The notes beneath the pieces are model-generated. The model saw nothing but the letters and a program-made list of their open reading frames with translations. It ran no database searches and had not been told where the DNA came from. A program made the position numbers and the translations under genes. Shown here piece by piece: positions 252 to 62,826 of a stretch of DNA of 64,000 nt (positions within the stretch are counted from its first letter, which is position 1; each line of letters begins with the position of its first letter). This DNA comes from a virus: positions 2,265 through 66,264 of the IMG/VR virus record IMGVR_UViG_3300049434_000042; one strand, 5' to 3'.

Positions 252-2255
252 ATGGGCCTCGGTACCGAAGTCGCTCTGATCAGTGCCGCGCTGGCGTTGG
301 TCGGTGCTGGCCTCTTCTGGAAGGCGAAGAGCTACCCGCCGGCGGCGGGGATGGCGATCGTCTTGCTCGTCGCGCTCGACACGATCTCTCACATCCTGCC
401 GATCGTCACGCTCTTACTGATCGCGGCGAAGGTGTACTCGAAGTACACCGGGACGGCGTCGCTCGTGAAGCGGTGGGCGGGTCGAGCTCGGCGGAAGTCG
501 GGGGTCGCCTCCTCGTTCGACGTTTTCTGGCGCGCGTCGTGGTTCGCGATGCGCCGGCAGGCCCACATCCTCCGGCCGAGCTTCGCTTCGTTGCCGTCGA
601 CGAAGGGCCTCGATTCGCTGGCGAAGCTATGGGCGGCTATCACGCTGACCGTCGTGGGTTGCTTCCTCGTTCCGTCGGGTGCGCTGTATGTGCTGCCGGC
701 GGCCGCGTGCGGGATCCTGCTCGGCCACCTATGGCGGCGTGGGTCTGGCTGTCCGTCGATGGCGAGGCGGTGGCGGGTATGGGGGACGACGCTCTCGCTC
801 GTCGTGGGTGTGCCGTTGCACGCGTTCTCGATCCGGCTTGCTCAGGTTGGGTGGTTCACACTTCGGCAGCCGATCGAGCTCGTGACCCTGATTTTCGGGG
901 GCCCTCGGAAGGGCAAGTCGGGTTTGCTGATGCGGATCATTATCGACGCGCCGGGTGCTGTGATCGCGACGTCGACGAGGACGGATCTGTACGACTCGAC
1001 GCAGGGCATGAGGAGTCTCGGCGGGCGGCCGGTGTACGTGTTCAATGCGGCCGGGCTCGGGAAGCTGGCGTCGACGGTGACGTTCCCGGTGCTGGCGGGT
1101 TGCACCGATCCCGTCGTCGCGATGGGCCGGGCGGAAGACATGCTCTCGGGTCAGGTTGGTGGCGGGGAGCGGGAGCATTGGGTCGCCGAGGCGAAGCGGA
1201 TCTTCGGGATCTTCCTGCACGCGGCCGCGCTCGATAAGCGTCCCCTCGAAGACGTGCAGCGGTGGATCTCTGACACCGACCGATGGCACCGTGAGATCAC
1301 GGCGGCTCTCAAAAAGTCGTCGCAGCAGATCTACGGGCCGATGGTCGAGCAGTTCCTCAAGACGAACGACCGGACGCGGACCTCGGTCACGAACGGGCTC
1401 TCGCCGGCGCTGGCGTGGCTGGCGTCTCCTGCAGCGGTGGCGGCCGCGTCGGATCTGTGCCCGCTGGACGTCGAGGATCTGCTGCGTCGGCGTGGCACGG
1501 TGTACCTGCTCGGCGCGAAAGAGACTCATACCGCGCCACTGCTGGCCGGGTTGACTGGTCTTATTGCGCGGGAGGCTCGCCGTTTAGCTGCGTCGGATTC
1601 GAGCGTGTCATCGGGTCGCCGGCTCGATCCTCACCTGACGTTGGCCCTCGACGAATGCGCACTGATTTGCCCTATCCCTCTCGACGACTGGTCGGCTGAT
1701 ATGGGTGGCCGCGGTGTTCACATTGTGGCGTGTTTCCAGTCTCGGGCAGATATTCGCGCGAAGTGGGGAGTCGAAGGCGGTAAGCGCATTTTCAATAACT
1801 CGGGCGCGATGGTCCTATTCGGTGGGACGAATGACGAAGAGGACGCGCGGCTTTGGTCGACTCGGACCGGGGTCCGGGATGAGCTCGTCGGCGGGCAGAC
1901 GCGGCAGGTGCCGGTTTTGACTCCGCAGCAGATCGCGGATTTGCCGCCGTGGCGTGTGGTGCTATTCCCGTCGGGGATGCCGTGTTCGCTCGGGAAGGTC
2001 AAGCCGGCGTGGAAGTACCGGGACTATAAGCGGTGGATGCGTCACGAGGCAGCCGCTACGCAGGCTGCGGTCGATTCGGTTATCGCTGCGGCGGAGCGGG
2101 AGACGGAGCTCGCGGAGTCGGTGCCGGCGTTGTCGTGGTCGGGCGACGGTGTGTACCGGTCGGGTGGCGCGGTCGACGAGCCGGTCGGTCCGGTGCCGGC
2201 GCAGCGGTCGGTCGACCCGCGGTCGAATAGTCGGGCGGGTGGTTCGGGTGAGTGA
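252..2255 (+). CDS. virD4: Type IV coupling protein, VirD4/TraG/TraD family
   Basis: GGAGG RBS before ATG 252; N-terminal TM segments; Walker A GGPRKGKSG; ATSTRTD; Walker B LALDECALICP; FQSRADI..KWG motif. Confidence 0.9.
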   Translation: MGLGTEVALISAALALVGAGLFWKAKSYPPAAGMAIVLLVALDTISHILPIVTLLLIAAKVYSKYTGTASLVKRWAGRARRKSGVASSFDVFWRASWFAMRRQAHILRPSFASLPSTKGLDSLAKLWAAITLTVVGCFLVPSGALYVLPAAACGILLGHLWRRGSGCPSMARRWRVWGTTLSLVVGVPLHAFSIRLAQVGWFTLRQPIELVTLIFGGPRKGKSGLLMRIIIDAPGAVIATSTRTDLYDSTQGMRSLGGRPVYVFNAAGLGKLASTVTFPVLAGCTDPVVAMGRAEDMLSGQVGGGEREHWVAEAKRIFGIFLHAAALDKRPLEDVQRWISDTDRWHREITAALKKSSQQIYGPMVEQFLKTNDRTRTSVTNGLSPALAWLASPAAVAAASDLCPLDVEDLLRRRGTVYLLGAKETHTAPLLAGLTGLIAREARRLAASDSSVSSGRRLDPHLTLALDECALICPIPLDDWSADMGGRGVHIVACFQSRADIRAKWGVEGGKRIFNNSGAMVLFGGTNDEEDARLWSTRTGVRDELVGGQTRQVPVLTPQQIADLPPWRVVLFPSGMPCSLGKVKPAWKYRDYKRWMRHEAAATQAAVDSVIAAAERETELAESVPALSWSGDGVYRSGGAVDEPVGPVPAQRSVDPRSNSRAGGSGE

Positions 2256-2889
2256 ACCGACGAACGGTCGGTCGGAGGGTCATTCGACCGCGTTCGACTG
2301 GAAAGGTGCGTTCCGGTCGTTCGGGCAGGAGTTGGAGCGGGTCAACCGTCGGGTTACCGACCTCGACGAGCTGCTCGCCACGCTCGCCCGGGATGTGACG
2401 GCGATCAATGAAACCTTGGAGGACGCGAAGGGCCAGGCCACGGTGTCGTGGCTGCTGCTGGCGGATCCGGTGGCGGCCGTGGCGGTGCTCGGGGATCTGG
2501 CGGTGTGGTGTGAGGAGGTCTACCTCCGGTACGACGACGCGGCGTTGCCGGCGTGCTGGCTGTGGCATGCCGGGCTCGTCGAGGAGCTCCTCACCCTCCG
2601 CCAGGGTCACGCTGACGCCTTCCACTCGAAGTCACGCTCTGCAGCGAAGGCTCTGGACTGGCACGAGCGGTACCGGCCCGGCGTAGTCAAGCGGCTCCTC
2701 GAAACGGTCCGGGACTGCGACCTCTCCAAGCACGAGCCACCAGCACTGCCGAGGCCTACCCCTCTCAAGCTCACGATCGAACGAGCAGCAGTAGCTCACG
2801 CGCAGGGACTCACCATCACTCCAACCTCTGACGAGATCACCGAAGCAGACGCCTACCAGCCGGACTACACACCCACGCAGCAGCAGTAA
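2248..2889 (+). CDS. Conjugation-associated protein (DUF4913-like)
   Basis: GTG overlaps the T4CP end; coiled coil followed by LPACWLWHAGLVEELLTL..DWH, a motif typical of genes beside actinobacterial T4CPs. Confidence 0.6.
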   Translation: MSEPTNGRSEGHSTAFDWKGAFRSFGQELERVNRRVTDLDELLATLARDVTAINETLEDAKGQATVSWLLLADPVAAVAVLGDLAVWCEEVYLRYDDAALPACWLWHAGLVEELLTLRQGHADAFHSKSRSAAKALDWHERYRPGVVKRLLETVRDCDLSKHEPPALPRPTPLKLTIERAAVAHAQGLTITPTSDEITEADAYQPDYTPTQQQ

Positions 2890-2911
2890 CGAAGGCACCC
2901 TCTCAACCGAT
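2886..2911 (+). promoter_or_regulatory. SigD-like promoter GTAAC-N17-CGAT upstream of the relaxase
   Basis: Exact match to the motif repeated 10 times in the window. Confidence 0.7.
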
Positions 2912-3079
2912 CACTCATCTACAGAGCAAGATCACGAGAGCAGGTCAACCCATGAACACACAAGATCCAAATACACAATCCACTACCAAGATCACGAAGT
3001 CAGTCACACCTAGGCATCCCGATGTCCAGGTGATCGACTTCGCGCTTCGCGCTCGTCTATCGAAGATCAACGGCACGCC
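2912..3079. other. Candidate oriT / relaxosome-binding region
   Basis: Intergenic, A/C-rich, directly upstream of relaxase; CAAGATCACGA at 2927 and 2987, variants at 2961 and 3062; GCGC-TTC-GCGC hairpin 3042-3052. Confidence 0.5.
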
Positions 3080-6000
3080 GTGTTAAGCGTCGGCGTCGGG
3101 TATGACTCTGCGTACTACACGGGCATCGTTGGGTCCGGCCGTGAGGGCTACTACACGGGCGCCTCAGCGACGGGCGAGCCTCCCGGCGTCTGGCACGGTG
3201 CCGGCGCTGCGGAGCTCGGGCTCGTCGGGGAGATCGACCCGGAGCTCATGCACGCTATCTATGACCTACTCCTCGACCCGCGGGATCCGAACACTCACGA
3301 CCGGACGACATGGGGCAAGGCGGAGGGCCTCGGCGCGGCGCACAAGCACTACCAGTCCGCGGAGCAGCTCTACGCAGCGTCACTAGAGCGGGAGCCCGAC
3401 GCCGGCCCGGAGCGACGATCCGAACTCCGGCAAGCGGCGGAGGAAGCGGCCCGGCAGGCGGTCGAGTTGATCGACGCGACGTTCTCGCCGGCGAAGTCGG
3501 TCACGGTCACCGCGGCCAGCTTCGAGCGGATGGCCAACGATGCTGCAGCGCGTGGTGACCACGAGGCGGCCGCCATGTGGTCGATGCGGCATGCGGCGGT
3601 CGAACATGCGGTGATGATGGGGGCGACCGCTTCGGTCGACTACCTGCAGGATGTCGCCGGCTACGGTCGAGTGGGCAAGCACACGGCGGGTGGTCCTAAC
3701 CGTTGGGTCGACTCACATAAGTGGGTGGTCGCGCAGTTCCTACAGCACGACAGTCGACTGCACGATCCTCAGTTGCACGTACATCAGGTAATCCTCAACC
3801 GTCAGCTATGCGCCGACGGGAAGTGGCGCGCGCTCGACTCGCGGGCGATCCATGGGTACAAGCGGGCAGCCGGCGCGATGGGTGAACGGGTCATGGAGGC
3901 CGAGCTCGCACGGTCGCTCGGTCTGCAGTTCGAGACGCGCGTCGACGGTCAGGCCCGGGAGGTCGTGGGAGTCGACCACAGGGTTATGGATCTGTTCTCA
4001 GAGCGGTCGAAACACATCAGCGCGAAGACCGCGGAGCTCGCCGACGCTTTCCGGGAACGGTACGGCAGGGAGCCGTCGGCGCGGGACATGACGATGCTCA
4101 AGACCGAGTCCACGCTCATTACTCGTAACGCGAAAGAATACGGCGGGGAGAGTTTCGTTGAGCGTATGGACCGGTGGGAGGCGCAGTGCCGCGCGGAGAT
4201 CCCGGCCGGGTTGGCCGCGGTCGCCGAAGCCGTTCTCGAGAACGCAGCGCGGCCCGCGGAGCCGGCGACGTGGGTGCCTCGGGACGTAACCGAACGGGCC
4301 CTCGCAACGCTGACGGATAAGGGTCAGACGTGGGGCGACTCGGACGTCACGGGCGCGGTTGATAAGGCGTTGCCGGCAAATCTCGGGCTCGCTCCGCAAG
4401 ACGTCCGGCCATTCTTGGAAAGTGTCGTCGCGGAGACGCTGGCGGCCGCTATCCCGGTCAAGAAAGGCGAGACCACCACCAATCTGCCGAGCGCTCTGCG
4501 TTTGGAGAATGGACGCTCGGCGTATGAGGCACCAGCGGCCCGCCGGTGGACGGCGGAGGGTGTGGTCGCCGCGGAGCGGTTGCTGCGTGATGCCGCCGTG
4601 CTGCGGGGGGCAGCGACGGTGAGCTTGGAGCAGGCCGAGGAGTACATCGCGCGGTATGCGTCGTCGGATCATCGCCTCGGTGAGGATCAGGCCGCGATGC
4701 TGCGGGGGATCCTGACGTCGGGGGCGTTGACGGAGACGGTGTGCGCGCCGGCGGGGACGGGCAAGACCTTCGCCGTTGGAGCGGCCGCAGAGGCGTGGCG
4801 GGAGATGGGTCGCAGCGTCGTCGGGCTGGCCACTACGCAGAATGCGACGGAAGAGCTCGCGGCGGAGGGGTTGGACTGTCGGAACATCGCCGGGTGGCTC
4901 AAGGCGCAGGAGCGGATCGAGCAGGGTCACCCACGGCCGGGCGATGAGCTCTTCGAGTTGACGCCGGAGTCGATGGTGTTCCTCGACGAGGCGAGTATGA
5001 CGTCGACGCTCGACCTCGCACGGGTAGCGGAGAAGTGCAACGACGCCGGCGCGAAACTGGTCTTCGTTGGTGACCCGGCGCAGCTCTCACCGGTGGGCCC
5101 GGGTGGTGCGTTGGCTGACCTCGCAGAGCACGGGATCCGGTACGAGCTCTCGACGGTGCGACGGTTCGCTGACCAGTGGGAGCGGGATGCCTCACTGCGG
5201 TTACGGGCGGGCGATAAGTCGGCGATCGCGGATTACGACAAACATGGCCGGCTGCGCGATGGGGGAAGTCGGGAGGAGACGGAGGCGGCCGCTGCCCGGG
5301 CGTGGCTGGCCGACACGCTCGCGGGGAAAGAGTCGCTCCTACTGGTCGGTACAAATGACGCAGCGGACCGGATCGCGGGGCAGTTGCGGGACACGCTCGT
5401 CGAGCTCGGCATGGTCGAGGAGGCCGGTGTTCCGCTCGGGATGCAAGGCACTGTCGCCGGCGTCGGTGATCTCGTGCAGGCCCGTCGCAACGGCTGGGAA
5501 CTGACGGGATACGAGGGGAACACGCGGGCACCGATCAACCGTCAGGCCTACGAGGTGACGGCGACCCGCGATGACGGCGGTCTCGTGGTGCGGGCTTTGC
5601 ATGCCGACCCGGAGGATCCGGCGGCCAAATTAACGCTGCCGGGCTCCTACGTTGATTCGGCGATGTGTTTGGCGTATGCCTCGACGGTTCACGCTGCGGA
5701 GGGCCGGACGGTCGACACTGGTCACGAGATCATCGGTGACGGTATGGACGCCTCCGGGGCCCTGGTGGGCCTCACGCGTGGTCGTGAGTCCAACACGGCG
5801 TGGGCGGTGACGCAGCGGACCGCGCAGGACGCGGAGCCGGGGCAGGTTCACGAGGTCGAGGAACGCTCCGCGGTGGGTGTGATGCGGGATCTGCTCGAAC
5901 GGGCGGAGGAGCAGCGAACGGCGACGGCGCAGCAGGAGCAGGCCGCGATCGACGAGGTGTCGACCCGGTCCCACGCGGAGAAGCTCATAGATGGTGTCAA

Positions 6001-7438
6001 TCAGGTACTCGCGGACCGCTCGGCCGGTGTTCTCGACGCTCTGCACGCGGAGGGTGTCCTCTCGGCGCACGACCGTGAGCGGTTGGCCGGGGATACCGGG
6101 ATGGGTGCCCTCGATCAGCTGCTCCGGCGCGTTGAGCTTGCCGGCCACGATCCGCGGGAGGCGCTCGCGACCGCGGTGACGCAGCAGGGTCTCGACTCGG
6201 CGCAGTCGCCGGCGCAGGTGTTGCACTGGCGGGTGAGAACGTCATATGACGATCGTCTGACTCCGGTGGCTCGGTCGCATGCGGATCTCATTCCGGCGGA
6301 TGTGCCGGCGGAGTGGCGGCCGTGGCTGACTGACCGGGCCGACGCTGCGGACGATCGTCGGCGGGAACTCGGCGCGCAGGTGGCGGAGGAGGGCCCGCAG
6401 TGGCTCGTCGAGGCTCTCGGTGCGGCGCCGGAAGATGCGATCGCGCGGGCTGAGTACGAGCACAAGGCTGGCTATGCGGCCGCGTACCGGGAGCAGACGG
6501 GTCACACGGCGGAGGCGGATCCGTTGGGTTCGGCGCCTCCTGCAGGGCTGCCGGAGAAGTTCGCCCTATGGCACGCGGGGCATGCTGCGCTCGACCTGCC
6601 GGACGCCGGCGCGGATGAGGCGAAGATGTCCGACGGGCAGCTCCGCAACCGTGTGCGCGCGTACGAGCGTGAGACTTTCTGGGCTCCGAAGTACGTCGGC
6701 GACCAGCTTGCAGCGACGTCGACGGCAGCCGATCAGGCGAGGGTTGACGCGCAGATTTGGGGGGCCCGGGCGGAGGTCGAGACTGAGGCCGAGGCTGCGG
6801 TGCAGTTGCGTGAGGCGGCTCAAGCGGCCGCGGCGGAGGCGGAGCTTCTAGCGACGAGGGCTGCGCAGCTTGATAAGAGCGACACGCAGCGCGCGGATTG
6901 GTTTATTCATACGTCGAAGACGAGGGAGGCCTCGGAGCGTGCTCGTGCGGCGTTGGGGGCCCGTGGTGTGGACCTCGACGCGCCGGCGGAGCGGACGACT
7001 GCGGCGGAGTGGCTGGCTGCGCATGTCGAGGAGCAGCGGGCCGATGAGCGTGGGCGGCCGGTGCGTGATGAGGTCGAGCTCGTCGACGAGGAGTCGGAGG
7101 CGGTGCGCGCGGAGGTCGACGAGGCGACGACGCCGGCGTTCGCTGATGGTCTACCGGAGACGGCGCTGCAGGATATTCGGGAGACTGCGGTCCCGGATGT
7201 GACGGAGCTGGCCGACGAGGCTGTCCAACGCCGGGTGCCGGCGGTCGATGAGACGGCGGAGGCGGTGGATCGGGCGCATGAGGCTGCGCGGGAGATCCAA
7301 GCTAGGGCGACTCTCGACGCACAGAACGAGGACGACCGTCACGCGCAGCAGCTCTCGGCGTGGGCAGCCGCGGATGAGGCTCGCGAGTACGAGTCAACGG
7401 AGTGGCAGCGGGACGAAGAGCCGGCGTGGGAGCACTAG
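3080..7438 (+). CDS. mobF: MobF (TrwC/TraI-type) conjugative relaxase with SF1 helicase domain
   Basis: YYT..EGYYT..GEPPGVWHG; DATFSPAKSVT; HUH QHDSR..DPQLHVH; Walker A APAGTGKT; DEASM; GDPAQL; YASTVHAAEG; GLTRGR. Confidence 0.95.
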   Translation: MLSVGVGYDSAYYTGIVGSGREGYYTGASATGEPPGVWHGAGAAELGLVGEIDPELMHAIYDLLLDPRDPNTHDRTTWGKAEGLGAAHKHYQSAEQLYAASLEREPDAGPERRSELRQAAEEAARQAVELIDATFSPAKSVTVTAASFERMANDAAARGDHEAAAMWSMRHAAVEHAVMMGATASVDYLQDVAGYGRVGKHTAGGPNRWVDSHKWVVAQFLQHDSRLHDPQLHVHQVILNRQLCADGKWRALDSRAIHGYKRAAGAMGERVMEAELARSLGLQFETRVDGQAREVVGVDHRVMDLFSERSKHISAKTAELADAFRERYGREPSARDMTMLKTESTLITRNAKEYGGESFVERMDRWEAQCRAEIPAGLAAVAEAVLENAARPAEPATWVPRDVTERALATLTDKGQTWGDSDVTGAVDKALPANLGLAPQDVRPFLESVVAETLAAAIPVKKGETTTNLPSALRLENGRSAYEAPAARRWTAEGVVAAERLLRDAAVLRGAATVSLEQAEEYIARYASSDHRLGEDQAAMLRGILTSGALTETVCAPAGTGKTFAVGAAAEAWREMGRSVVGLATTQNATEELAAEGLDCRNIAGWLKAQERIEQGHPRPGDELFELTPESMVFLDEASMTSTLDLARVAEKCNDAGAKLVFVGDPAQLSPVGPGGALADLAEHGIRYELSTVRRFADQWERDASLRLRAGDKSAIADYDKHGRLRDGGSREETEAAAARAWLADTLAGKESLLLVGTNDAADRIAGQLRDTLVELGMVEEAGVPLGMQGTVAGVGDLVQARRNGWELTGYEGNTRAPINRQAYEVTATRDDGGLVVRALHADPEDPAAKLTLPGSYVDSAMCLAYASTVHAAEGRTVDTGHEIIGDGMDASGALVGLTRGRESNTAWAVTQRTAQDAEPGQVHEVEERSAVGVMRDLLERAEEQRTATAQQEQAAIDEVSTRSHAEKLIDGVNQVLADRSAGVLDALHAEGVLSAHDRERLAGDTGMGALDQLLRRVELAGHDPREALATAVTQQGLDSAQSPAQVLHWRVRTSYDDRLTPVARSHADLIPADVPAEWRPWLTDRADAADDRRRELGAQVAEEGPQWLVEALGAAPEDAIARAEYEHKAGYAAAYREQTGHTAEADPLGSAPPAGLPEKFALWHAGHAALDLPDAGADEAKMSDGQLRNRVRAYERETFWAPKYVGDQLAATSTAADQARVDAQIWGARAEVETEAEAAVQLREAAQAAAAEAELLATRAAQLDKSDTQRADWFIHTSKTREASERARAALGARGVDLDAPAERTTAAEWLAAHVEEQRADERGRPVRDEVELVDEESEAVRAEVDEATTPAFADGLPETALQDIRETAVPDVTELADEAVQRRVPAVDETAEAVDRAHEAAREIQARATLDAQNEDDRHAQQLSAWAAADEAREYESTEWQRDEEPAWEH

Positions 7439-9199: not shown

Positions 9200-9551
9200 G
9201 CAATCCCGGACGCTGGTCGGTGACGCCGAGGCGCGTCGTCGTGACGCCGGCGGGGGCATGGCCGGGGAGCACGCGGCGGAGACGGCGGTGCTCGATCGAG
9301 GTGGGTTGTGGATCGAAGGCGCGTGGTACTGGCGGGTGGACCTCGAAGCGCAGCAGCGCGCCGAGCGGGAGGCCCGCAGCAGGGCACACGCGCCGAAGAC
9401 TCGCCGGGACGGTGGACCGTTGCCGTCGCTAGCGCATTACCGGCCTACGGAGCGGTGGGTTCCTCACCCTCGTGGGCACGAGCCGTATTTCGCGGGCGCG
9501 GTGGCGCGGTTGTGGGCATGGGTTCCACCAATGGAAGGGAGCGCAGGGTGA
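9192..9551 (+). CDS. Hypothetical protein
   Basis: Overlap-coupled within the operon. Confidence 0.55.
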   Translation: MAKQSRTLVGDAEARRRDAGGGMAGEHAAETAVLDRGGLWIEGAWYWRVDLEAQQRAEREARSRAHAPKTRRDGGPLPSLAHYRPTERWVPHPRGHEPYFAGAVARLWAWVPPMEGSAG

Positions 9552-9826
9552 GTGAGGCGCACGAGGTGAGAAAGGGCCTGCAAGCGGCCGCGACGGCACT
9601 GGCCGGGATGGCGCTGCAGCAAGACCGGATCGCGGACATGCTCGCGACGTGGGATAAGCGGGCGAGCTGGGAAGACGGGATGACCGTTCCCGACAGTGTC
9701 TACGTAGACGAGCGCCGGCAGGCGCGGACGTGGGCGTCGGCGGCCGCGGAGCTACGAGCGGCGATCGCACCGTCATCGGAAGACATCAGGGCAGCACTGG
9801 CGAAGTTGGAGGCGAGAGCGCAATGA
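9548..9826 (+). CDS. Hypothetical protein
   Basis: GTGA overlap, RBS. Confidence 0.6.
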   Translation: MSEAHEVRKGLQAAATALAGMALQQDRIADMLATWDKRASWEDGMTVPDSVYVDERRQARTWASAAAELRAAIAPSSEDIRAALAKLEARAQ

Positions 9827-10011
9827 CAAACGTGCAGCGGGACGGGCGCGGCGCGTGGGTATGGCTGTCTGACGAGGAGCTCACAGTTGTGCACACGGCG
9901 CTTATGGAGTCCGCGAACACGGAGCGGAGGCTCTCGTTCAATGGGCACGACGAGCAGGTTCGGGTAGTCGAGGGTCTGATCGCCCGGGTACTGGGAGCGG
10001 TGCCGGCATGA
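9823..10011 (+). CDS. Hypothetical protein
   Basis: ATGA overlap. Confidence 0.55.
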   Translation: MTNVQRDGRGAWVWLSDEELTVVHTALMESANTERRLSFNGHDEQVRVVEGLIARVLGAVPA

Positions 10012-10355
10012 CCGACGAGGACAAAGTCGCGGCCGCGCAGCAGATCGCGGAGCAGATGGCGCTGCAGCTTCACCTTGCGGTAGTCGTGACGCCGGTGGGC
10101 GAGGACGGCTGGCGTTGGGGGCAGCCATCGGTCGTCGAGGCGAGTCACGTCCTCTCGGTGCTCGATGACGGTGGGTACGAGCCGGGTGGCTTCACTCGGA
10201 CTTTGATTGAGGCGATGCTGCGGGCGGATGCGTTGAGTCTCGGCAAACTGGCGCTCGCTTTCCCGGGCTATGCCTCAGCCATCTATGCGTACAAGTTCGA
10301 CCTCGACGGGCTCGACCGGCTCCGAGTGGTCGTTTGGGGGAATCGGAGGCCATGA
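10008..10355 (+). CDS. Phage hypothetical protein (F..LI.AML+AD...L...F family)
   Basis: ATGA overlap; motif shared with 15750-16151. Confidence 0.65.
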   Translation: MTDEDKVAAAQQIAEQMALQLHLAVVVTPVGEDGWRWGQPSVVEASHVLSVLDDGGYEPGGFTRTLIEAMLRADALSLGKLALAFPGYASAIYAYKFDLDGLDRLRVVVWGNRRP

Positions 10356-10798
10356 CTGAGGAGGAGCGTCGGACGTTGCGGGCGGATCTCCTGCTCGCCT
10401 TTCAGGACTCGGAAGTTATCAAGGTCGCCGAGGACGGCAAGCCGGTGCGGTGGGATTCCGCGACGGGTGAGGAAGCCGAGCGGATGGCGGATCTCGTGTT
10501 CGCGGTGCTCGACGAGCATGGTCTCGACGTCGTCGAGGTGCCCGGTGCGTCTCGGGGTGAGCGGGAGGCCGCGGAGCTGGCCACTAGCTACCGGGTGACC
10601 GACGCCGGCGGCCAATTGATCGAGGAGGGGTCGCCCGTCCGGTATCCGAATGGCGTCGAGGGGATCTTCGGCCGGGTCATCACCCCCGGCTGCGTCGAGG
10701 TGGACGGGTTCGCGCAGCTATCGAGCAAGTTCGGGCTGACGGTTATCTCCGTCGCGCCGGCGGAGCTCACGATGCCGGATTTGCCTGCAGAGCAGTAA
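10352..10798 (+). CDS. Hypothetical protein
   Basis: GGAGG RBS, ATGA overlap. Confidence 0.65.
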   Translation: MTEEERRTLRADLLLAFQDSEVIKVAEDGKPVRWDSATGEEAERMADLVFAVLDEHGLDVVEVPGASRGEREAAELATSYRVTDAGGQLIEEGSPVRYPNGVEGIFGRVITPGCVEVDGFAQLSSKFGLTVISVAPAELTMPDLPAEQ

Positions 10799-10820
10799 CG
10801 CTCGGACGTCGAGCAGCGAT
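10795..10820 (+). promoter_or_regulatory. SigD-like promoter upstream of whiB
   Basis: GTAAC-N17-CGATAC. Confidence 0.7.
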
Positions 10821-10865
10821 ACATCAGAAAGGGCCCGTCGACGGATCGGCCCGCACAGCACGGAG

Positions 10866-11285
10866 GTGAGATCAGTGGACTGGCGGCATCGTGGATCGTG
10901 TCGGGACGAAGACCCGGAGCTCTTTTTCCCAGCTCCGAAAGACACGCGTGCGCTGGCCGAGGCCCGTTCGGTGTGTGAGACCTGCCCGGTAGTGGCGGAG
11001 TGCCTCAAGTGGGCCCTCGATAACGGTCAGATCGACGGGGTGTGGGGCGGTCTGAGTGAGGACGAGCTCCGTAAGCACCCTGATCGGAAGGGTCAGACCG
11101 GGGGGATCGAGGCCTACGTCGAGTGCCGTCGGTGTCACAAGATGCTGCCGGTAGAGCGTTTCGGCCGTGACCGGAATCGGTCGAGTGGCCGTAAGGCGCG
11201 GTGCGGGAAGTGTGTTTATGCGGCGGAGTCGGATCGACGGGCGCGGAAGCGAACGGAGGTGCAGGAGTCGCTGTTTGCTAGCTAG
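10866..11285 (+). CDS. whiB: WhiB-family transcriptional regulator with extra C-terminal Cys domain
   Basis: W....C...DPELFF..A..VC..CPV..EC..WAL....GVWGGLSE; C-terminal CRRC..CGKC. Confidence 0.93.
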   Translation: MRSVDWRHRGSCRDEDPELFFPAPKDTRALAEARSVCETCPVVAECLKWALDNGQIDGVWGGLSEDELRKHPDRKGQTGGIEAYVECRRCHKMLPVERFGRDRNRSSGRKARCGKCVYAAESDRRARKRTEVQESLFAS

Positions 11286-11290
11286 TTAGT

Positions 11291-11319
11291 GGGGCCCGGC
11301 TGACGTGGTCGGGCCCTTT
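11291..11319 (+). terminator. Intrinsic terminator after whiB
   Basis: GGGGCCCGGC / GTCGGGCCCT stem followed by TT. Confidence 0.55.
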
Positions 11320-11337
11320 CAGCACGGAGGCGAGGAG

Positions 11338-14300
11338 ATGGCAGTGAGTGAACCATTTGACGGTCTTAACGAGGAATGGCTAGCTGAGGAAGATGCTCGG
11401 TCTTTGGCATTTCAGGCGACCGGTGGGCGGTCGTGGTATCAGTCGCCGAGCGACGGGACGTGGCGGTCGGTCACCGGTGGGTGGTCGCCGTCGGAGCTCG
11501 CTAATCGGATGACGATGGGGGACGCGACTCCTCGGCATGAGGCGGCCGCGGCTGACTTCTGGGCGATGGCGGCCCATCAGGCGTACGTCAATGCGAATTA
11601 CCGCGCGGAGGAGGAGCTGCAGCGCGACGTCGACGAGGAGACCTCGCAGTCGCAGCAGGCCGCGGTCGAGGCTACGGAGCTGGTCGACTTGACGGGGCAG
11701 ATCCTCGTCGAGTTGCAGGATGAGGCCGATCGGCTCAACGACCGGGCCGACGCGGTCGAGCAAGCACAGTTTGAGGCCTATAACGCTCGGGTCGAAGCGG
11801 TCAAAGCGGTGCATGAACAGTTGATCGACCGGGATTTGTACGACTCTCACCGTCATCAGGACGACTACAGCGACGAGATCTGGGCGCAGGCTGAGCAGCT
11901 CGTCGACGTGGGCATCACGAGCGCTGACGTCGACGTGATGACGGGCCAGCGCGACACCTACCACGAGGAGTACGACGACCTGTACGAGCAGCACCAGCAC
12001 GCCGAGTTTGAGCGGCAGCGTGACGAGCGTAAGGCGCAGATGGCCGCGGAGGGCCCGGTGTCGGAGGCGTGGCGCGCAGCGGTGGGAGTGACGTACCACG
12101 AGCAGGTACTCGAATACGGCAACGATGGTCGACCGGAAGACGATCGGTTTTTGACCGACGCCGAGCAGGCCACGCGAACGGCTGCGGTCGACCTGATCGC
12201 CCGGGCGACGGGTGTCTCCCCCGGGTACGTGCATAGCGAATTGCAGGACGCAGCCCACGCTTACGGGCAGGCGCCGGGCACTGACTATGACCCGGACTAC
12301 TTAGCTCCGCCGGACTGGTCAGAGTTTGTGAGCGGCTACGAGCGTCTCGGTTTCGAGCCGGCTCCGCCGGAGGCAGTCGAGGGCCCTTTAGTCCTAGAGG
12401 ACGGCACCACTTTCACGGCTGACGAGCCAGCACCGGTCAAGCTCACAGAAGCGGGCGAGGCGGAGGCACTGGCTAGCGCGTGGGATGCGCAGGCCGAGCG
12501 GATGCGGGGCGATGTTGCCAGTGACTTGCTCGCGGCGAATGTCGAAGAGCTCACCGGGGCGACTCTGACCGAGGAGATCCCGGAGGCCTTGCTCGATCGG
12601 GGTATGAGCTCCGATGAGTTGTCGGCCGAGCTCTTCCCGGAAGGTGATGCTGCGGTCGGCGACAACCTCGCACGTATGGAAGAGACCGCCGGCGTGCTCC
12701 CTGATACATGGGAGGCAAAGAATCCCGACGCTCCGTGGGCAGCGCATGAGGACAACGTCGCGGCCGCGGTCGATGCGTTCGGGCCGGATGTGTTCCGTCC
12801 GTTGCCGGCTGAGCTAGTCGACGCGGTTGCGGCGGAAGCGGCCGCGGGCTCGGAGCTCGAACTGGCCGCAGGTGAGCGGGAGCGTGAGGAGCACACTGAC
12901 CACCTCTTCGAGGAGGCTCTCGCGACGGATCCGGCGTTCGCTGCGCGGATCGCAGATAGCGCCCGGTCGCATGCCGAGGCGGCTCTCGGTCGGGAGCTCG
13001 AACCGTGGGAACACGCAGCGATCGACAATGCGGCCAGGGAGGGTGCCGAGCTCGACGCCGACGATCTGACGACGAAGCGGGCCGAGCGGGACTACGAGGA
13101 CGCGATGAGCGCTGGTCTGGCCCGAGAGGAGGCTCTCGCAAATGCGGAAGCGGACCTCGGTCGAGATCTGACCTTCGAGGAAGCGGTTGCCGCGGTGGCC
13201 AGCGTCGACGCGCAGGACGGTGACGGGCTCGACGAGCGGGTCGACGACGAGGCAGCTACGGCGGAGCGGTGGGACGATACCGTCGCCTCCGCCGGCGCGT
13301 GGCAGGACTTCCTCCGTGGTCAGGAGACGGCGAAGGTGGCCGAGCTCGAAGCGGAGGCCGGCGCGCTGCAGCAAGACCTCGACGCGGGCAACGTGCCAGC
13401 AGCAGAGGAACACGCGGTAGCCGAGCACGTCCAGCACCTCGAAGAGGAAGCGGCGATCGCTCGCGGGGAGTGGCCGTTCGAGAGCGCAGCACCGACGCCG
13501 GCGATGCAAGAGCAGATCGACACGCACCGTGCGGCGTGGGATGCGGCTACCGAGGACGTGGCCCGGATGCAGGGCACGACGGTCGACACCCTCGACGTGC
13601 CGATCGTGACGGCTGATGACTTCGCTGAGCTCGTCGAGCGGGCCGAGGCTGCAGTGCGGGAGGAGGAGCGGCTCGCAGGCGCGGACGCGGCCGCTGACGT
13701 CCAAGAGCAAGCCGACCTAGCCGGCGCGGCAACGGAGCCGGCGGAGTATTGGACGCCGGCGCGTGAGGCGGAAGCTGCAGCGCAGTATCAGCGGGCTTTC
13801 AACGCGGCCAACGCCGACCCGGCGACTATTCCGCCGGAGGTGTACGCGAAGGGTTGGGATGCGGTAGCTGACTACCAGCAGGAGCAGGTCGACGCCGACC
13901 CGGATCCGGCGGGTTGGGCTTCCCTGCCGGCTGACGTGCCGGAGTGGGTAGCGGAGCAAGGCTCCGAGGCGACTGCTGATTACGTCGCCGAGCGGGCCGA
14001 TCGAGAGTCCGTTCCGTCACCGGTGGCCGGTGATGAGGAGCTCGGCGACGACGAGCCGGATCGTGAGGGTCACGGGGTGCCGTCAGATGAGGAAGTCGAG
14101 GCGCGGGGTTACGGGCTAGATGCGTACGAGCAGGCCCTCGCAGACCCGGATGACGACGACGGGACGGTGTACGACGATCCAAAGTTTCGGGCTGAGCTCG
14201 AAGCGGCTGCAGCGGCCCGGGCGGAGGCAGCGGAGCAGGGAAAATCGGAGGCCGCGGAGGCAGTACAGGCAGCGCATGAGGCCACGCAGGAAACGGTCGA

Positions 14301-14379: not shown

Positions 14380-14582
14380 GTGGTGGTCATTGGTGGTCGT
14401 GGTTCTCGGGTGAGTGTTCTAACCCGGTGCAGGTGGTGGCGCAGCCGACGGCGACTGGCGCGGTGAGGGACGCTCACGCGGCGACGAGGGAGACGATCGC
14501 GGTAAGCACGCGTTCCTCGTCGTCGGGTGCTGCCTCGTCGGCTAGCGGTACCTACTGCGTGGGCAAGGCGGCGGGGTCGTGA
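14376..14582 (+). CDS. Small protein carrying the AVxxAHxAxxE motif
   Basis: GTGA overlaps at both ends. Confidence 0.6.
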   Translation: MSGGHWWSWFSGECSNPVQVVAQPTATGAVRDAHAATRETIAVSTRSSSSGAASSASGTYCVGKAAGS

Positions 14583-16472: not shown

Positions 16473-16474
16473 CA

Positions 16475-16500
16475 GTAACGGGCGGTGTCTCGCCGGCGAT
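16475..16500 (+). promoter_or_regulatory. SigD-like promoter
   Basis: GTAAC-N17-CGATAG. Confidence 0.65.
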
Positions 16501-55267: not shown

Positions 55268-56353
55268 TTACGCACCTAGCGTGAGCTGGCCCAGTAGGTG
55301 CGCGTTGGGCATGGTCGGGAAGGCGACTGCTACTGCCTTCGACCACTCGCCGGGAGGCTCGTCGGTGCCGTAGGTCGAGGCCCAGATGCCGGAGGCCATT
55401 TGCTGATAGGGGGTGCCGATCAGCGCGCGGGACTCGGCGGTCGGGCCCCAGAGTGTGTTCCCGACTGGCATGCCGGGGAGCAGGACGCCGACGTTCTGTC
55501 GCATGGGCCTGACCTGCGTGACGCTGCCGTCGGCCGCTTCCGCGCCTACGCTGACGTCATAGGTTTGAATCCGGGGCAGGTCATAGCGGTCCATTGTGGC
55601 TTGCACTTCGCCGGGCATCATGGGCCGGTCGGGTGCGGTGGTCTGGTAGGTCCATCCCTTGATCTGGTCGTTGGTGAGCAGGTAGTTCGCGTACTTCCGT
55701 GAGGTCAGCAGGGTTTGCGGCCGCTGCCCGGTCTCGTCTTGGATCTTCTGACAGATCGTCATCAGGTCCGTCAAGGGTGTGGCGTTGGCTACGTCGGACC
55801 ATGCGGGCCCGTAGTCAGCGGCGACCGAGGTGCCGGCGCCGTCGGCTTGCGTGACGAGGTTGATCTGATACTCGTCGTTGAGACCGAAGTCGAAGCGGAT
55901 CTTAATGCCACCCTCGTCGTAGACGACGGCGTCTTCGGAGAGCGCTTGCATGCGGAGCCACTCGACGCGGGCTTGGATCGAGGCGACGAGGTTGGAGATC
56001 CCTCCGAGGACGCCACGCAGCGCGGTCTGCTGGTCGGCGGTGCCGGTGCGGGGGGTGAGAAAGCGGATGATCTCTTTCTCGGAGATTCGCCGCTTCCGCT
56101 TGATCGGGGGGAGCTCACCCATCACGCGCTGACCTTGTGCCTCACGGCCAGCGATGGGGGCTTCGGCGTCCCAGCCGATGACGTGCGCCATTACCGGGAT
56201 GTTCTGTGCCCCGATGATGTACTGATACTCGACGTCGTCGTGTGTTTGGTTGGGCAGCCACGTCGCGCCCTGGTACGCGGGGAGCGGGAGGAGCGCGCGG
56301 ACGTAGGGCAGGAGCAGCGGCGGGGTGAGCTCTTCGAGCTGCCAAATGTTCAC
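55268..56353 (-). CDS. Major capsid protein (lambda E-like family)
   Basis: A....DAEAPI..GELPPIK.K..I.E; R.EW.R.QAL; DFG; WSD...PL.D; G.T.WGPTAE. Confidence 0.92.
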   Translation of the reverse strand: MNIWQLEELTPPLLLPYVRALLPLPAYQGATWLPNQTHDDVEYQYIIGAQNIPVMAHVIGWDAEAPIAGREAQGQRVMGELPPIKRKRRISEKEIIRFLTPRTGTADQQTALRGVLGGISNLVASIQARVEWLRMQALSEDAVVYDEGGIKIRFDFGLNDEYQINLVTQADGAGTSVAADYGPAWSDVANATPLTDLMTICQKIQDETGQRPQTLLTSRKYANYLLTNDQIKGWTYQTTAPDRPMMPGEVQATMDRYDLPRIQTYDVSVGAEAADGSVTQVRPMRQNVGVLLPGMPVGNTLWGPTAESRALIGTPYQQMASGIWASTYGTDEPPGEWSKAVAVAFPTMPNAHLLGQLTLGA

Positions 56354-59437: not shown

Positions 59438-60107
59438 GTGACCAACCCTGGTAGCCGGCGAGGAGTAGGCCGTTGACGACGGCGACGGATCCGGCGCGGG
59501 CCTCTTCGACGCAGCGGGAGCGCAGGGCCCAGAGCACTCCGCGGCCGGGTGCGCCGGCGAGTCGGACGGGGTCTTCGGAGCACCAGCGGCGGGCGAGGTC
59601 GGCGGGTGTCTCTTCGGGGTGTACTGCCCAGACGCGGGCTTGCTCGGTCATTCGGCCGGCGGTGATGCCGACCTCGACGGCGATCCGGGCGCAGGCGGTG
59701 GCGTAGTAGCGGGCTTCGAGGTCGGGGGCGATGGTTTCGGCTGCGAGGACGCCGGCGCCGGCGACGGGTATGGCGTGGGGCCCGACGGTCTGCTGACAAG
59801 TGCGGAGCTGCCGGGCGATCACTGGGAGGGTTTCGCCGCGGGTCAAGGCGAGGAGCTGTGAGATCGCGGGCCCGGCGATGGCGAGGATCTGCTCGGGTGT
59901 GGGTAGGAGCTTCGGCACTGCTCGGCGTAGCGCGGTGCGGGTGCTGGCGCCGGCGGCGACGGTGCGTTCGGTGAGGGATACGGCGACGCCTCGGAGCCCA
60001 GATTCGATGACGGCGGCCGCGCGGTGCTCTTCGACGAGCAGGGCATCCATGAGGGCTTTGCTGGCGTCGGCGACGTCGCGGCCGGCGGAGGGTCGGCCGC
60101 CACTCAT
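59418..60107 (-). CDS. Probable N-terminal half of the MuF-like minor head protein
   Basis: Between portal and the MuF core; helical. Confidence 0.55.
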   Translation of the reverse strand: MSGGRPSAGRDVADASKALMDALLVEEHRAAAVIESGLRGVAVSLTERTVAAGASTRTALRRAVPKLLPTPEQILAIAGPAISQLLALTRGETLPVIARQLRTCQQTVGPHAIPVAGAGVLAAETIAPDLEARYYATACARIAVEVGITAGRMTEQARVWAVHPEETPADLARRWCSEDPVRLAGAPGRGVLWALRSRCVEEARAGSVAVVNGLLLAGYQGWSRAAAAS

Positions 60108-61870
60108 CGGGCGGGCCGGAGGTGGGTGGGATTGTTCACGACGCCTCCGACGGTGCCGGGTGGTGTGTTGGTGCCGCCGACGACTCCGGTACCGGGTGAG
60201 GGTGCTCCGCCGAAGCGGCCGCCGTCGATGCCGCCGAATGCTGCCTGCTGCGCTTGCTGGTCACGCTGGCTTTGAGCGTCGATCTCGCCGGTAATCGTGG
60301 TGATCTCGGTGTTGGTGTACCCGCGTAGCCGGAGGGCCTCTTCTCGAGAAATTAGGTTCGCGGTGAAGTCGTCTCGGATTTGTGCGGCGTCGACTACTCC
60401 GCCGGAGCCGGTGCGGATCTCCGCGGAGCGTTGTGGGTAGACCTTGAGTGGGTCGATTTTCAGGGCTTCGACGACGGCGGTCACGCGGTCGAGTTGGTCT
60501 GCGCCGGCTGTCCAGTGGGCTTGACAGTCGAGGACGATGTTGACGAGGGCGAGCCAGTCGCGGACGAGTTGGTTGCGTAGGACGTCGAAGGTCGATTCGG
60601 TGCGGGTGTTGAGAATCTCCAGCGCGTAGCCGGTGACGGCGCCGAGGCCTTGCAGCGTGGACTGGTCGACGCGGGCGAGTCCGAATGTGCCGTAGAGAGC
60701 GTCGAGGAGCACGGTCCGCTGATGTTCGATCAGCGCCGTGTCTGTGGGGAGTACTACGGGGAAGGCTGCGGTGCCTCCGGGGAAAGTGAGCACGTCGGCC
60801 ACGTCTTTGTGAATCTTGCCGTCGGCTTGAGTTTTCATCATGGCTTGATCGCCGACGACGACGAGGGTTGCGTGCGCGTTGTGAGCAGCGGCGAGGAAGC
60901 CGCGCTGCAGCAGGGAGTCGAGGCGGTCAGCCGTTCGCATGGCGCGGGTGCTGACGACGGACTCGCCGCGCTCGACGCGCAGGCCCTTACGGGATCCGCG
61001 TAGCAGTCCCCACGGGACGAAGGGCACGCCGACTGGGATGCGATCGAGGAGGACGTCCTCGTCTTGCCCGGGGCGCTCTTCCCACCACGTCTCGACGCAT
61101 TGCACGGTGACCGGGCCCGTTTCGGGGGTGCCGTCCGGGCCGGGGTACCAGTAGGCCTCGACACGCCATTCGCGGCGGATGGTGACCTGATGAACGTTGC
61201 CGTCGTCACCGGTGCGCCAGTGGGTCTCCCAGAGAGCGACGAACTCGGGGCGGTCGGATCGTTCGCGGGTGAAATCCATGCGGACGGCGTCGCTCGGGTA
61301 GAAGTCGAGCCAGCAGTTGCCGAGGGCGACGTCGAAGCGGACGCGTACGGGGCAGTCCATCGCGAGGAGAGCTTCGCGGGTGACGCGTTCGACTGAGAGC
61401 TCGTCGTCGTCAGCGGTGCCGGAGAGCTCCGGGGATGAGTCGAGGCATCGGTCGATGACGTCTTGCACGGCTTTGTCTTTCGCCTCGACGGCGAAGTCGG
61501 TCACGAGCCGGTGGGTTAGGTAGTCGACGGAGTCTTCGATCTCCGAGGAGTAGGCGTGGAGTCGGAGGTGCTCGGGGAGGCGCCCGGAGACGATGGCCCG
61601 GGCGAGCATCTTCTCGCCGGCGCGAGCTTGCTCGGCGGTGAGGCCGGCTAGGCACGCGGTGTTGTCGGCGTCGAGTTGGGTGCCGCCGTAGTAGGCGCGG
61701 CGGGCGGCGACCTGATCGCGTCGGACGAGCTCGGCTGCCTGCCGGAAGTCGCCTTCGCTGGCGTAGGTGGCCGTGGCGAGTGGTGTGGAGACCCTCATGC
61801 CGATTTGGCCGGGTTCGTTGTATCCGAGGTCAGGGCTGGTCATGCCGTGATATTGCCCTACGGCGGTCAC
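60104..61870 (-). CDS. Portal protein (SPP1 gp6-like)
   Basis: YY.G; VP+; TGYALE; ISREEAL..GY; position after the terminase nuclease gene. Confidence 0.85.
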   Translation of the reverse strand: MTAVGQYHGMTSPDLGYNEPGQIGMRVSTPLATATYASEGDFRQAAELVRRDQVAARRAYYGGTQLDADNTACLAGLTAEQARAGEKMLARAIVSGRLPEHLRLHAYSSEIEDSVDYLTHRLVTDFAVEAKDKAVQDVIDRCLDSSPELSGTADDDELSVERVTREALLAMDCPVRVRFDVALGNCWLDFYPSDAVRMDFTRERSDRPEFVALWETHWRTGDDGNVHQVTIRREWRVEAYWYPGPDGTPETGPVTVQCVETWWEERPGQDEDVLLDRIPVGVPFVPWGLLRGSRKGLRVERGESVVSTRAMRTADRLDSLLQRGFLAAAHNAHATLVVVGDQAMMKTQADGKIHKDVADVLTFPGGTAAFPVVLPTDTALIEHQRTVLLDALYGTFGLARVDQSTLQGLGAVTGYALEILNTRTESTFDVLRNQLVRDWLALVNIVLDCQAHWTAGADQLDRVTAVVEALKIDPLKVYPQRSAEIRTGSGGVVDAAQIRDDFTANLISREEALRLRGYTNTEITTITGEIDAQSQRDQQAQQAAFGGIDGGRFGGAPSPGTGVVGGTNTPPGTVGGVVNNPTHLRPAR

Positions 61871-62826
61871 TGTGTGCGTCCGCTGGTGACTGCGGCGCGG
61901 AACTCGCTCATCCCGCCGGAGGCCATGCGTAGCCCGTACCAGAGGTGCCAGAGCGCCATAACGGTGTCATCGTGTTCGCCGACGCCTTGGAGTTTGCCGT
62001 CGACGTAGCCAAACGCTGCGAGCTCGATCAGCATGTTTTCGATCTCGCCGACTCGGGTGCCGTTGCTGCGGTAGGGGAAAGACCAGCGGCGGGCGGAGAA
62101 GTCGATGAGGAGCGCGGGGACTCCGATGTGTAGTGATTGCTTCTCTTCGCCGGCGCGGTGGCGTAGGACCGGGACGTCGGAGTGTGCCTCGACGGTTTGG
62201 GCCCAGATGACCTGTGCAGCGTCGGCTTCGATGACGACGAAGTCATCATGGAAGAGGGCCCACTGCTGCGCGATGAGCTCGCACTGCTCGGCGAAGGTCT
62301 TGCCCTCCCACCTGTGAATATCGAGGACGCGTTTGCGGCCGGTGTGCAGGTCGAGCTCTCCCGTGATTTTGACGAGGAAGTCACCTCCGACTTTCTCCGA
62401 CCATGCGAGGTCCCAGGCGGAGACGACTATGAGGCGGTGTTCGAGCCCGTTGGGTTTGAGGTAGTGGGGGAGACAGCCGCGGGCCTGGTCGAGCATCGGA
62501 CGCATGAGACGCCGGGGGAAGAGCGACGACTCGTCGGAGCGTGCGCTGGTCAATAATTCACGGTCATAAAGTATCGGGCCGAGCTCTTTGCGCTTCGCGT
62601 TCAGGCACGCGGTGTTCTTTGGGCAGATCTTGCAGGGGAGCTCTCGTTTGATCTCGGGTCGGAGCTCGGGGGGTGCCTCTTCGACTTTGTCGACGCACTC
62701 CTGCAGGGCGATCGCTGGCCAGCGTGACTGCCATAGGGATACGCGGGTGTTGACGTCGACTACGGCTAGTTCGTCGCCCTCTTCGAGTGGGTCTTCGTCG
62801 AGGACGACGGACCGGCCGAGCACCAT
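61867..62826 (-). CDS. terL: Terminase large subunit, nuclease (RNase H-like) half only
   Basis: LW..RW..ELG...Y.RE; AWDLAWS..GDF; VIEA; EHDDTVMALW; no Walker A/B. Confidence 0.88.
   Translation of the reverse strand: MVLGRSVVLDEDPLEEGDELAVVDVNTRVSLWQSRWPAIALQECVDKVEEAPPELRPEIKRELPCKICPKNTACLNAKRKELGPILYDRELLTSARSDESSLFPRRLMRPMLDQARGCLPHYLKPNGLEHRLIVVSAWDLAWSEKVGGDFLVKITGELDLHTGRKRVLDIHRWEGKTFAEQCELIAQQWALFHDDFVVIEADAAQVIWAQTVEAHSDVPVLRHRAGEEKQSLHIGVPALLIDFSARRWSFPYRSNGTRVGEIENMLIELAAFGYVDGKLQGVGEHDDTVMALWHLWYGLRMASGGMSEFRAAVTSGRTQ

Follow-up and report, generated by a model that had tools for sequence, protein, structure and literature searches.

A MobF relaxase and type IV coupling protein within the genome of a Kitkat-like siphovirus

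The 64-kb stretch of DNA analysed here (the window; bases 2265-66264 of one 66,264-bp IMG/VR virus record, G000) is from an uncultured soil phage of high-GC bacteria, a Kitkat-like siphovirus of an actinobacterium. Contiguous with its siphovirus genes it carries a type IV coupling protein (T4CP), a conserved protein of about 210 amino acids (aa) and a MobF relaxase. This module is intact and conserved, and is preceded by an early-type promoter motif of the phage lineage. That module and phage genes form a single replicon is well supported. On balance, and judging from what the genes encode, we lean towards the view that the phage is mobilisable: the relaxase would nick an origin of transfer (oriT) and the T4CP would feed the strand to a helper's channel. 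We describe it as a mobilisable rather than a self-conjugative phage because no gene for a VirB4-type channel was found. The element had been placed at 252-62826 in an initial annotation of the window; its extent is instead the whole record.

Gene transfer by phages and by conjugative elements is regarded as following two distinct routes, with limits on host range proper to each. A phage lineage with an intact relaxase and T4CP under early control of its own would blur that separation. If mobilisation does occur, the phage could reach cells that lack its receptor and the virus could be carried through mating networks. Claims for hybrid elements that are based on assemblies usually come without markers of long co-evolution of the parts, and here there are two such markers, a promoter motif and a strand bias at synonymous sites. 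In our literature search, no description of a phage with both a MobF relaxase and a T4CP came up.

The transfer module and the phage genome that carries it

Codon-position statistics and homology divide the record into two arms. Plus-strand genes occupy the stretch between genome position 1 and about 17.8 kb of the window, and minus-strand genes run from about 63.7 kb down to 17.9 kb, while the G+C content is about 66% along the entire record, without a compositional seam. The module lies in the plus-strand arm:

135-2255, plus strand: T4CP of the VirD4/TraG family (Pfam), the ATG at 252 being the likely start
2257-2889, plus strand: conserved protein of about 210 aa between T4CP and relaxase, start uncertain
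2886-3079, plus strand: intergenic region upstream of the relaxase, with a promoter-like motif at 2886-2911 and two CAAGATCACGA repeats
3080-7438, plus strand: intact MobF (TrwC-type) relaxase of 1452 aa with a superfamily 1B (SF1B) helicase domain (Pfam, NCBIfam, alignment to Protein Data Bank (PDB) sequences)

The T4CP is intact. Its open reading frame (ORF) matches the Pfam families T4SS-DNA_transf (4.8e-12) and TraG-D_C (9.6e-16), and the translation has the features typical of the family: N-terminal hydrophobic segments that form a membrane anchor, a Walker A motif (GGPRKGKSG), an hhhhDE Walker B motif and the T4CP domain. The relaxase ORF matches TrwC in Pfam (2.5e-45; 155.7 bits, cut-off 25) and MobF in NCBIfam (146.7 bits, cut-off 100), and its C-terminal part matches AAA_30 (9.5e-51) and, in the PDB search, Pif1 helicases, as expected of a RecD/Pif1-like SF1B helicase. 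In the PDB alignment the HUH histidines H223, H233 and H235 line up with the histidines of TrwC. These three histidines, together with Tyr12, Tyr24 and Tyr25, are invariant across 23 aligned relaxase relatives. All seven members of the 90% relaxase cluster are 1452 aa long and 97-98% identical to the G000 relaxase, while the DNA of a relative diverges by about 6-9% from G000 over the compared stretch, which argues for purifying selection on the relaxase. Family matches, motifs and invariant residues therefore bear out the first description of an intact-looking T4CP and TrwC-type relaxase contiguous with a siphovirus gene set.

Between these two genes, the protein of about 210 aa has no Pfam family, and NCBIfam gives only a faint WXG100 match (E 0.0064). 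For the region at 2886-3079 we infer a candidate oriT. The CAAGATCACGA repeat has three matches, a number that 7 of 100 shuffles also reach, which makes it weak when taken alone.

T4CP and relaxase genes are rare in phage records. In a collection of 50,697 such records that includes Kitkat, tblastn with the relaxase gave weak partial matches in only four other records, the best being Mycobacterium phage Adler (28% identity over 30% of the relaxase), and the T4CP gave no match; a megablast search of 50,697 phage records with 44 kb of the window likewise found none. The minus-strand arm holds a full siphovirus gene set, identified by Pfam and homology:

20430-21212, minus strand: ATPase half of the terminase large subunit (TerL), 55% identical to Arthrobacter phage Kitkat gp4 (E 1e-89)
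21216-21572, minus strand: gp3-like gene, upstream of the TerL ATPase half
28447-37013, minus strand: replication/recombination block (Pfam), with four GTAAC-N17-CGAT motifs
30457-31767, minus strand: PD-(D/E)XK nuclease (Pfam)
32338-33285, minus strand: ERF (Pfam)
33847-35238, minus strand: DnaB (Pfam)
35187-35831, minus strand: DnaC-like protein (Pfam)
37827-39746, minus strand: collagen-repeat protein (Pfam)
40525-41568, minus strand: GH25 lysin (Pfam)
43244-50979, minus strand: tail module of a 1024-aa tail protein, a 382-aa protein and a 1280-aa ORF of tape-measure size, named from size and position
55268-56353, minus strand: major capsid protein (Pfam Phage_cap_E, 3e-16), 46% identical to that of Kitkat
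60104-61870, minus strand: portal, 39% identical to Kitkat gp15
61867-62826, minus strand: TerL nuclease half, 55% identical to Kitkat gp11, with a weak Terminase_6C match

Terminase, portal, capsid, tape measure/tail and lysin are thus all present, and by these genes the record is assigned to the tailed phages (Caudoviricetes) of siphovirus type. Kitkat is the closest cultured relative, and homologues of the tail module occur in six of the other IMG/VR phage or viral contigs that were compared with G000 and are designated G001-G012 (G003, G004, G005, G007, G008 and G011). Like G000, Kitkat and KellEzio (Kelleziovirus) combine the virion module with a split TerL, at identities of 39-55%. Unlike G000, Kitkat is 58.6 kb long and keeps its ATPase and nuclease genes about 1.9 kb apart, where G000 has at least 20 kb. 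The halves are 0.3-2.4 kb apart in Kitkat, G002 and three metagenome contigs (L137, L139, L140); the upstream check of TerL-nuclease relatives covered six loci with at least 2.7 kb of upstream sequence, and the more distant relatives L142, L146 and L149 had no ATPase-half match there. On the circular map of G000, the spacer between the halves exceeds 20 kb and consists of the 20-kb arm and a few kb of small genes. In G003, whose capsid protein is 78% identical, opposite-strand genes begin about 4 kb past the ATPase half, the promoter motif is found there, and the contig then ends.

Evidence for a single replicon

What ties the module to the phage genes other than adjacency? The motif GTAAC-N17-CGAT occurs in ten copies in the window where 0.29 are expected (0 of 100 shuffles reach ten) and in 11 copies in the whole record, each oriented with local transcription. 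The plus-strand copies in the window are at 2886, 10795, 16475, 17043, 17431 and 17597, and the minus-strand copies at 28472, 33245, 35892 and 37013, all of these in the replication block. Among the seven plus-strand copies of the arm, one stands 169 nt before the relaxase, one 46 nt before the gene of a WhiB-family regulator and five before small ORFs, and one of the seven is 482 nt ahead of the genes for a single-stranded DNA-binding protein (SSB) and the T4CP; a minus-strand copy stands 36 nt before the DnaC-like gene. The early observation that relaxase and phage replication genes share a promoter motif is upheld by these counts and orientations. Among the phage relatives G001 has five copies and G003 eight, and there are none in G002, G004, G005, G008, G012 and Kitkat. 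In 1.55 Mb of bacterial relaxase loci we found five scattered copies, none of them in the nearest relatives of the G000 relaxase. Judged by this distribution, the motif is a property of the G000/G001/G003 phage lineage and not of the transfer module, and we regard it as a putative promoter motif of extracytoplasmic function (ECF) sigma type. A sigma-70 consensus scan of window positions 1-20 kb gave no promoters, and terminators were not in excess. An RsdA-like anti-sigma domain is encoded among the small ORFs of the record.

The second marker is compositional. A strong asymmetry, extreme at synonymous sites, makes the plus strand rich in G and T along the whole record, irrespective of gene direction. 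In four arm genes on the plus strand, coding-strand GC skew at four-fold degenerate sites amounts to +0.21 to +0.59, as against -0.37 to -0.66 in seven phage genes on the minus strand; the values for homologues in G003, G004, G005, G008 and G011 range from -0.25 to +0.34. The asymmetry is common to G000 and G001 and is absent in G002, G003, G005, G008, G011 and Kitkat. Because the same strand-specific bias has reshaped arm and phage genes, both parts appear to have been for a long time in the same orientation in one replicon. The asymmetry suggests one-way or rolling-circle-like replication, or long exposure of one strand in single-stranded form. In the usual layout of F and R388 the transferred strand here would be the minus strand, and a bias of the opposite sign would therefore be predicted; any link between the bias and transfer is speculation.

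Independent assemblies also join the arms. Soil run X7 (study P4) yielded a single 67,050-bp Logan contig that follows window 9547-27984 colinearly, with identity of about 91-96%, and spans the junction in one piece (window 17131-26341), and a 19,637-bp contig from run X3 (study P3) covers window 9525-20087; runs X1 and X2 gave only short contigs (150-600 bases, low depth) and no bridging of the junction. At 90%, relaxase and TerL nuclease half each form a cluster of seven members, and both clusters include contigs of 66,264 (G000), 66,466 and 67,104 bp. A 22,322-bp JGI contig is the longest listed for both a relaxase variant and a TerL-nuclease variant; if the two entries are one contig, it joins both ends of G000. 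By extrapolation, the X7 contig ends at about 57.9 kb of the window and, on the other side, about 6.3 kb beyond the left end of the record, and exactly these end points follow if the genome is a circle a few hundred bases longer than G000. The record is classed as linear in IMG/VR and has no exact terminal repeats of 5 to 2999 bases. The genome is probably circular or circularly permuted, at about 66-67 kb: on size, four or more assemblies of 66.3-67.1 kb with different ends fit a closed genome, which was the outcome of the circularity check that the initial annotation had recommended.

Signs of integration were sought as well. Tyrosine and serine recombinases (PF00589, PF00239) have no match in the whole 66,264-bp record, which also contains no host genes. 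The tRNA-Gln gene of the arm was considered as an attachment site and rejected, there being no second copy of its 3' end in the window with three mismatches allowed. The recombinase scan, the tRNA search and the even composition agree with the original reading that integrase, att repeat and compositional seam are absent. G000 thus has neither the integrase and att sites of an integrative mobilisable element (IME) nor the two att-bounded elements, each with its own recombinase, of a tandem between a phage and an integrative and conjugative element (ICE); no recombinase and no att repeat were found. Together, the two bridging assemblies, the assemblies of 66.3-67.1 kb, the motif, the strand bias and the recurrence of the linkage in other phages, described below, sustain the proposal that this is one replicon, neither a prophage in an ICE nor a chimera.

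Origin of the module and rival explanations

Where might a siphovirus have acquired such a module? A species-genome scan returned 197 relaxase relatives, and the neighbourhood counts that follow refer to 80 kept loci and to genes within 10 kb of the relaxase. The closest relaxases, 50-57% identical, are in Pseudonocardia and Pseudonocardiaceae chromosomes and plasmids, and identity to plasmid MobF genes is 33-37%. The T4CP is present in 67-68 of the 80 loci and the protein of about 210 aa in 71, an SSB in 18, a WhiB protein in 15 and a DUF2637 membrane protein in about 18-19. Regulators of the GntR and Xis-like kinds are frequent there too. From these relatives of the arm, Pseudonocardiales would be the probable host, and the arm probably derives from the mobilisation module of integrative elements or plasmids of actinobacteria. 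Like G000, actinobacterial mobilisable elements and plasmids that have a MobF relaxase and their own T4CP, but no channel, show WhiB, a DUF2637-type protein, T4CP, the protein of about 210 aa and relaxase in the same order. Unlike them, G000 has the module inside a tailed-phage genome, without integrase and with the motif of the phage lineage ahead of it, whereas the bacterial copies examined are flanked by GntR, Xis-like, Prim-Pol, defence or metabolic genes and lack phage structural genes. The genes after the relaxase had at first been called phage-style; a WhiB gene and a tRNA are indeed there, but WhiB is not phage-specific, as the 15 bacterial loci make clear.

The possibility that the bacterial copies are hidden prophages was rejected, since no phage structural homologue was found at E 1e-6 in six loci of five isolate genomes (20 kb upstream and 40 kb downstream of the relaxase) or in three contigs from metagenome-assembled genomes (MAGs). 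A Pfam scan of 58 ORFs of two bacterial loci gave defence, transposase, Prim-Pol and metabolic families, with no virion family among the 25 of 62 families listed; SPP1_portal matched in 0 of the 5 isolate genomes, and the AAA_10 matches in those five sit far from the relaxases. Downstream of one chromosomal relaxase (G013 locus L153, 1049-12647) is a row of very large genes, including that of a protein with HEPN_Swt1 and DUF499, which is likely to be a defence island on a mobilisable element.

The linkage to phage genes recurs. A scan of IMG/VR with a profile of the relaxase alignment found nine viral contigs with full-length relaxases of this family (31-51% identity); a scan with the single relaxase sequence had found no relative. 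The T4CP is also present in six of the nine, and a capsid protein like that of G000 in none. Relatives with the same linkage, which the initial annotation had proposed to look for, are found in six other phage contigs that combine a relaxase of this clade with tail genes (G004, G005, G007, G008, G011 and G012). In G004, G005, G008 and G011 the T4CP, the protein of about 210 aa and the relaxase are syntenic and the tail genes are 27-41% identical to those of G000. G005 has an SPP1-type portal, a P22-type coat protein and a tail tube. In G008 and G011 the module is mid-contig and converges on the tail/lysis end, with a serine or tyrosine integrase and typical early genes on the opposite side, and G012 is a 110-kb provirus in which the module and an integrase occupy opposite ends and the virion genes the middle. 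G007 has a relaxase and tail genes, and G006, like G008, G011 and G012, has an integrase. As a group, the six resemble G000 in having a relaxase 46-51% identical to its own, the T4CP and the protein of about 210 aa in the same order, and convergence on a siphovirus tail/lysis end. They differ in the head module (G005), in integrases (G008, G011, G012), in the absence of strand skew, in forming their own relaxase clade and, for G004, G005, G008 and G012, in lacking the GTAAC-N17-CGAT motif. In a FastTree phylogeny of 78 relaxases (nine viral and 69 from bacterial loci, restricted to ORFs of 1300-1620 aa), G004, G005, G006, G008, G011 and G012 form a clade without a bacterial member (support 0.98), and the G000 relaxase groups with four MAG contigs (support 1.0), of which those that could be extended look like non-phage elements. 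From this tree, phages seem to have acquired the module on two or more occasions, with long retention in one phage clade, subject to the caveat that contigs in IMG/VR are viral by selection. In the distant provirus relative G002 (L009-L011, 53365-58027), a T4CP-like gene of 27% identity lies just past the integrase and close to the contig end; it could belong to an adjacent element or be a further case of the linkage.

Is G000 then a conjugative element or a phage-plasmid? The mating-pair-formation (MPF) genes of a self-transmissible element, at the least a VirB4-type ATPase, were not found in it, and a conjugative ability of its own is not supported; at most the element would be mobilisable through a helper channel. 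Nor did the scans support the term phage-plasmid: ParA, ParB and plasmid Rep families did not turn up in the 79 ORFs scanned, and no plasmid-typical replication-initiator or partition gene was seen. A search of the flanks for VirB4/MPF, ParAB and integrase genes had been advised, and over the full record it found none. Phage-plasmids of the P1, N15 and SSU5 types resemble G000 in joining plasmid-type genes to a temperate-phage-like genome; they differ in that no replication-initiator or partition gene was found in G000, whose plasmid-type part is a transfer and not a maintenance module. In P1, mob/oriT accompanies a loss of phage function, whereas the virion gene set of G000 looks complete. 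The Streptomyces plasmid-phage pZL12 is reportedly a further precedent. Surveys and a review of phage-plasmids are, in their available portions, among the nearest literature (PMC7969092; PMC12282955). Phage-ICE tandems, which according to the available part of one report are now described across many species (PMC13651849), and conjugative prophages of Streptococcus such as Phi1207.3, which the accessible text of another calls a conjugative prophage (PMC4260502), are like G000 in that phage DNA can be moved by cell contact. As far as those portions go, they consist either of two neighbouring elements, each having an integrase of its own, or of prophages that lack a relaxase; in G000, by contrast, the phage's own genome encodes relaxase and T4CP, and there are no channel genes.

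If the phage is mobilisable, relaxase and T4CP would be produced together with the phage replication genes, the relaxase would nick an oriT, perhaps at 2886-3079, and the T4CP would pass the single strand, with the relaxase bound to it, into a mating channel that another element or the host provides, so that the phage genome would enter cells by contact as well as by virions. Several observations weigh against such a reading or against a closed replicon. The VirB4-type ATPase family PF12846 (AAA_10) matched in 0 of 12 records, G000 included, and VirB4, FtsK and TcpC-type families did not turn up in Pfam scans of the 79 ORFs of the record; the bacterial copies of the module, too, are without a recognisable mating channel within 10-40 kb. 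The candidate oriT folds no better than shuffled sequences (z -1.12). No relaxase is seen in G001-G003, which by capsid are the three closest phage relatives, each of them being a fragment (44-73% complete). Closure of the genome is deduced from assembly sizes and not from sequence across the ends, and the CheckV completeness of 86% for the record is at odds with the argument from size. As to life style, neither an integrase nor a partition gene was found in the record, and the Arthrobacter phages that are its nearest cultured relatives have no integrase in the portion of their annotation that was examined. A bolder version, in which the whole genome is regularly exported as a single strand through the infected cell's channel from early promoters, so that infection by conjugation becomes a receptor-independent second route adopted at least twice by actinophages and more than cargo, with the C-to-T-type strand bias as the footprint of a genome that exists mostly as a displaced single strand set off by the relaxase, seems to us doubtful.

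The main rival to mobilisation, which we consider unlikely, is that the relaxase serves phage DNA replication as an HUH nickase, initiating rolling-circle copying of the entire genome, the T4CP being a passenger or having another role. A genome-wide excess of G and T on one strand that does not depend on gene direction and is absent from relatives would fit constant displacement of a single strand, the relaxase shares its promoter motif with the DnaB/DnaC-like and ERF genes, and an SSB gene lies beside the T4CP. Yet T4CP and the protein of about 210 aa accompany the relaxase in 67-71 of 80 bacterial loci and in six of nine viral records, which is the signature of a transfer module, and the phage has its own DnaB/DnaC-type replication genes. 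Moreover, G005, G008 and G011 carry the module without strand skew, and G001 has the skew but does not cover the arm.

It is quite unlikely that the element is self-transmissible through a channel of unrecognised proteins, such as the DUF2637-type membrane protein, the orphan ORFs or a type VII or other secretion system of the host. No record protein matches any channel family, and most ORFs of the arm are orphans that are not conserved in other phage contigs, although the bacterial loci also lack a VirB4-type neighbour and the module is nevertheless widespread (197 relatives), and the T4CP has a conserved membrane protein directly upstream. In the available part of one report, relaxase plasmids of M. 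abscessus are suggested to use host type VII systems (PMC8092301).

That the arm is recent, functionless cargo, a captured and tolerated piece of an IME, is improbable. Grouping of the G000 relaxase with non-phage MAG contigs does point to a capture separate from that of the other phage clade, and the ancestral spacing of the TerL halves would be the 0.3-2.4 kb of Kitkat, G002 and the three metagenome contigs. The seven relaxase variants are all full length and nearly identical in protein (97-98%), however, the promoter motif of the phage lineage stands ahead of arm genes, the synonymous-site bias has reached them, and 20 kb would presumably be a heavy load without benefit for a genome limited by its capsid. 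A linkage artefact, in which the assembly is chimeric or a prophage adjoins a chromosomal ICE or IME, is already largely refuted and highly improbable: G000 is a metagenome contig classed as linear and 86% complete, phage-ICE tandems are described in many species in the available text of PMC13651849, and G002 has its distant T4CP-like gene past an integrase, but two independent assemblies bridge the junction, assemblies of near-equal size end at different points, no integrase, att repeat or host gene is present, the arm is enclosed by the two terminase halves, and both arms have the promoter motif and the strand bias in common.

Other features of the two arms

The remainder of the plus-strand arm, up to the point where it meets the minus-strand genes, includes the following:

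genome 301-2167, plus strand, upstream of the T4CP and outside the window: 423-aa membrane protein, then SSB (NCBIfam/PHROG)
10866-11285, plus strand: WhiB-family regulator (Pfam Whib, 4.8e-24), with the promoter motif 46 nt upstream
11305-14379, plus strand: highly acidic protein of 1024 aa, rich in Asp, Glu and Ala (translation)
16401-16473, plus strand: tRNA-Gln, anticodon TTG (ARAGORN)
17832-17878, no strand assigned: perfect 16-bp hairpin at the convergence point of the arms, read directly

No relative turned up when metagenomes were scanned with the 423-aa membrane protein. The 1024-aa acidic protein has no match in Pfam, NCBIfam or PHROG and no usable one in PDB sequences or the ESM Atlas; homologues of its N-terminal part occur near the relaxase in 4 of the 80 bacterial loci (MAG loci), and it may, as a guess, be an anti-restriction or DNA-mimic protein. 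The remaining arm genes are orphan ORFs and small membrane ORFs, and the hairpin is likely a two-way terminator. Smaller ORFs of the record encode, by Pfam, a LexA DNA-binding domain, RusA, a second SSB, HNH/GmrSD_C, MarR-type regulators and the RsdA-like domain. In the minus-strand arm, the collagen-repeat tail/fibre gene contains, at 38553-39647, three tandem copies of 219 nt and a run of 9-nt Gly-X-Y repeats. Within the small-ORF region near the convergence point, GATAYACCGGGYG occurs in three copies at 17054-17466 (17.05-17.47 kb) against 0.32 expected, each overlapping the 3' (CGAT) end of a promoter motif.

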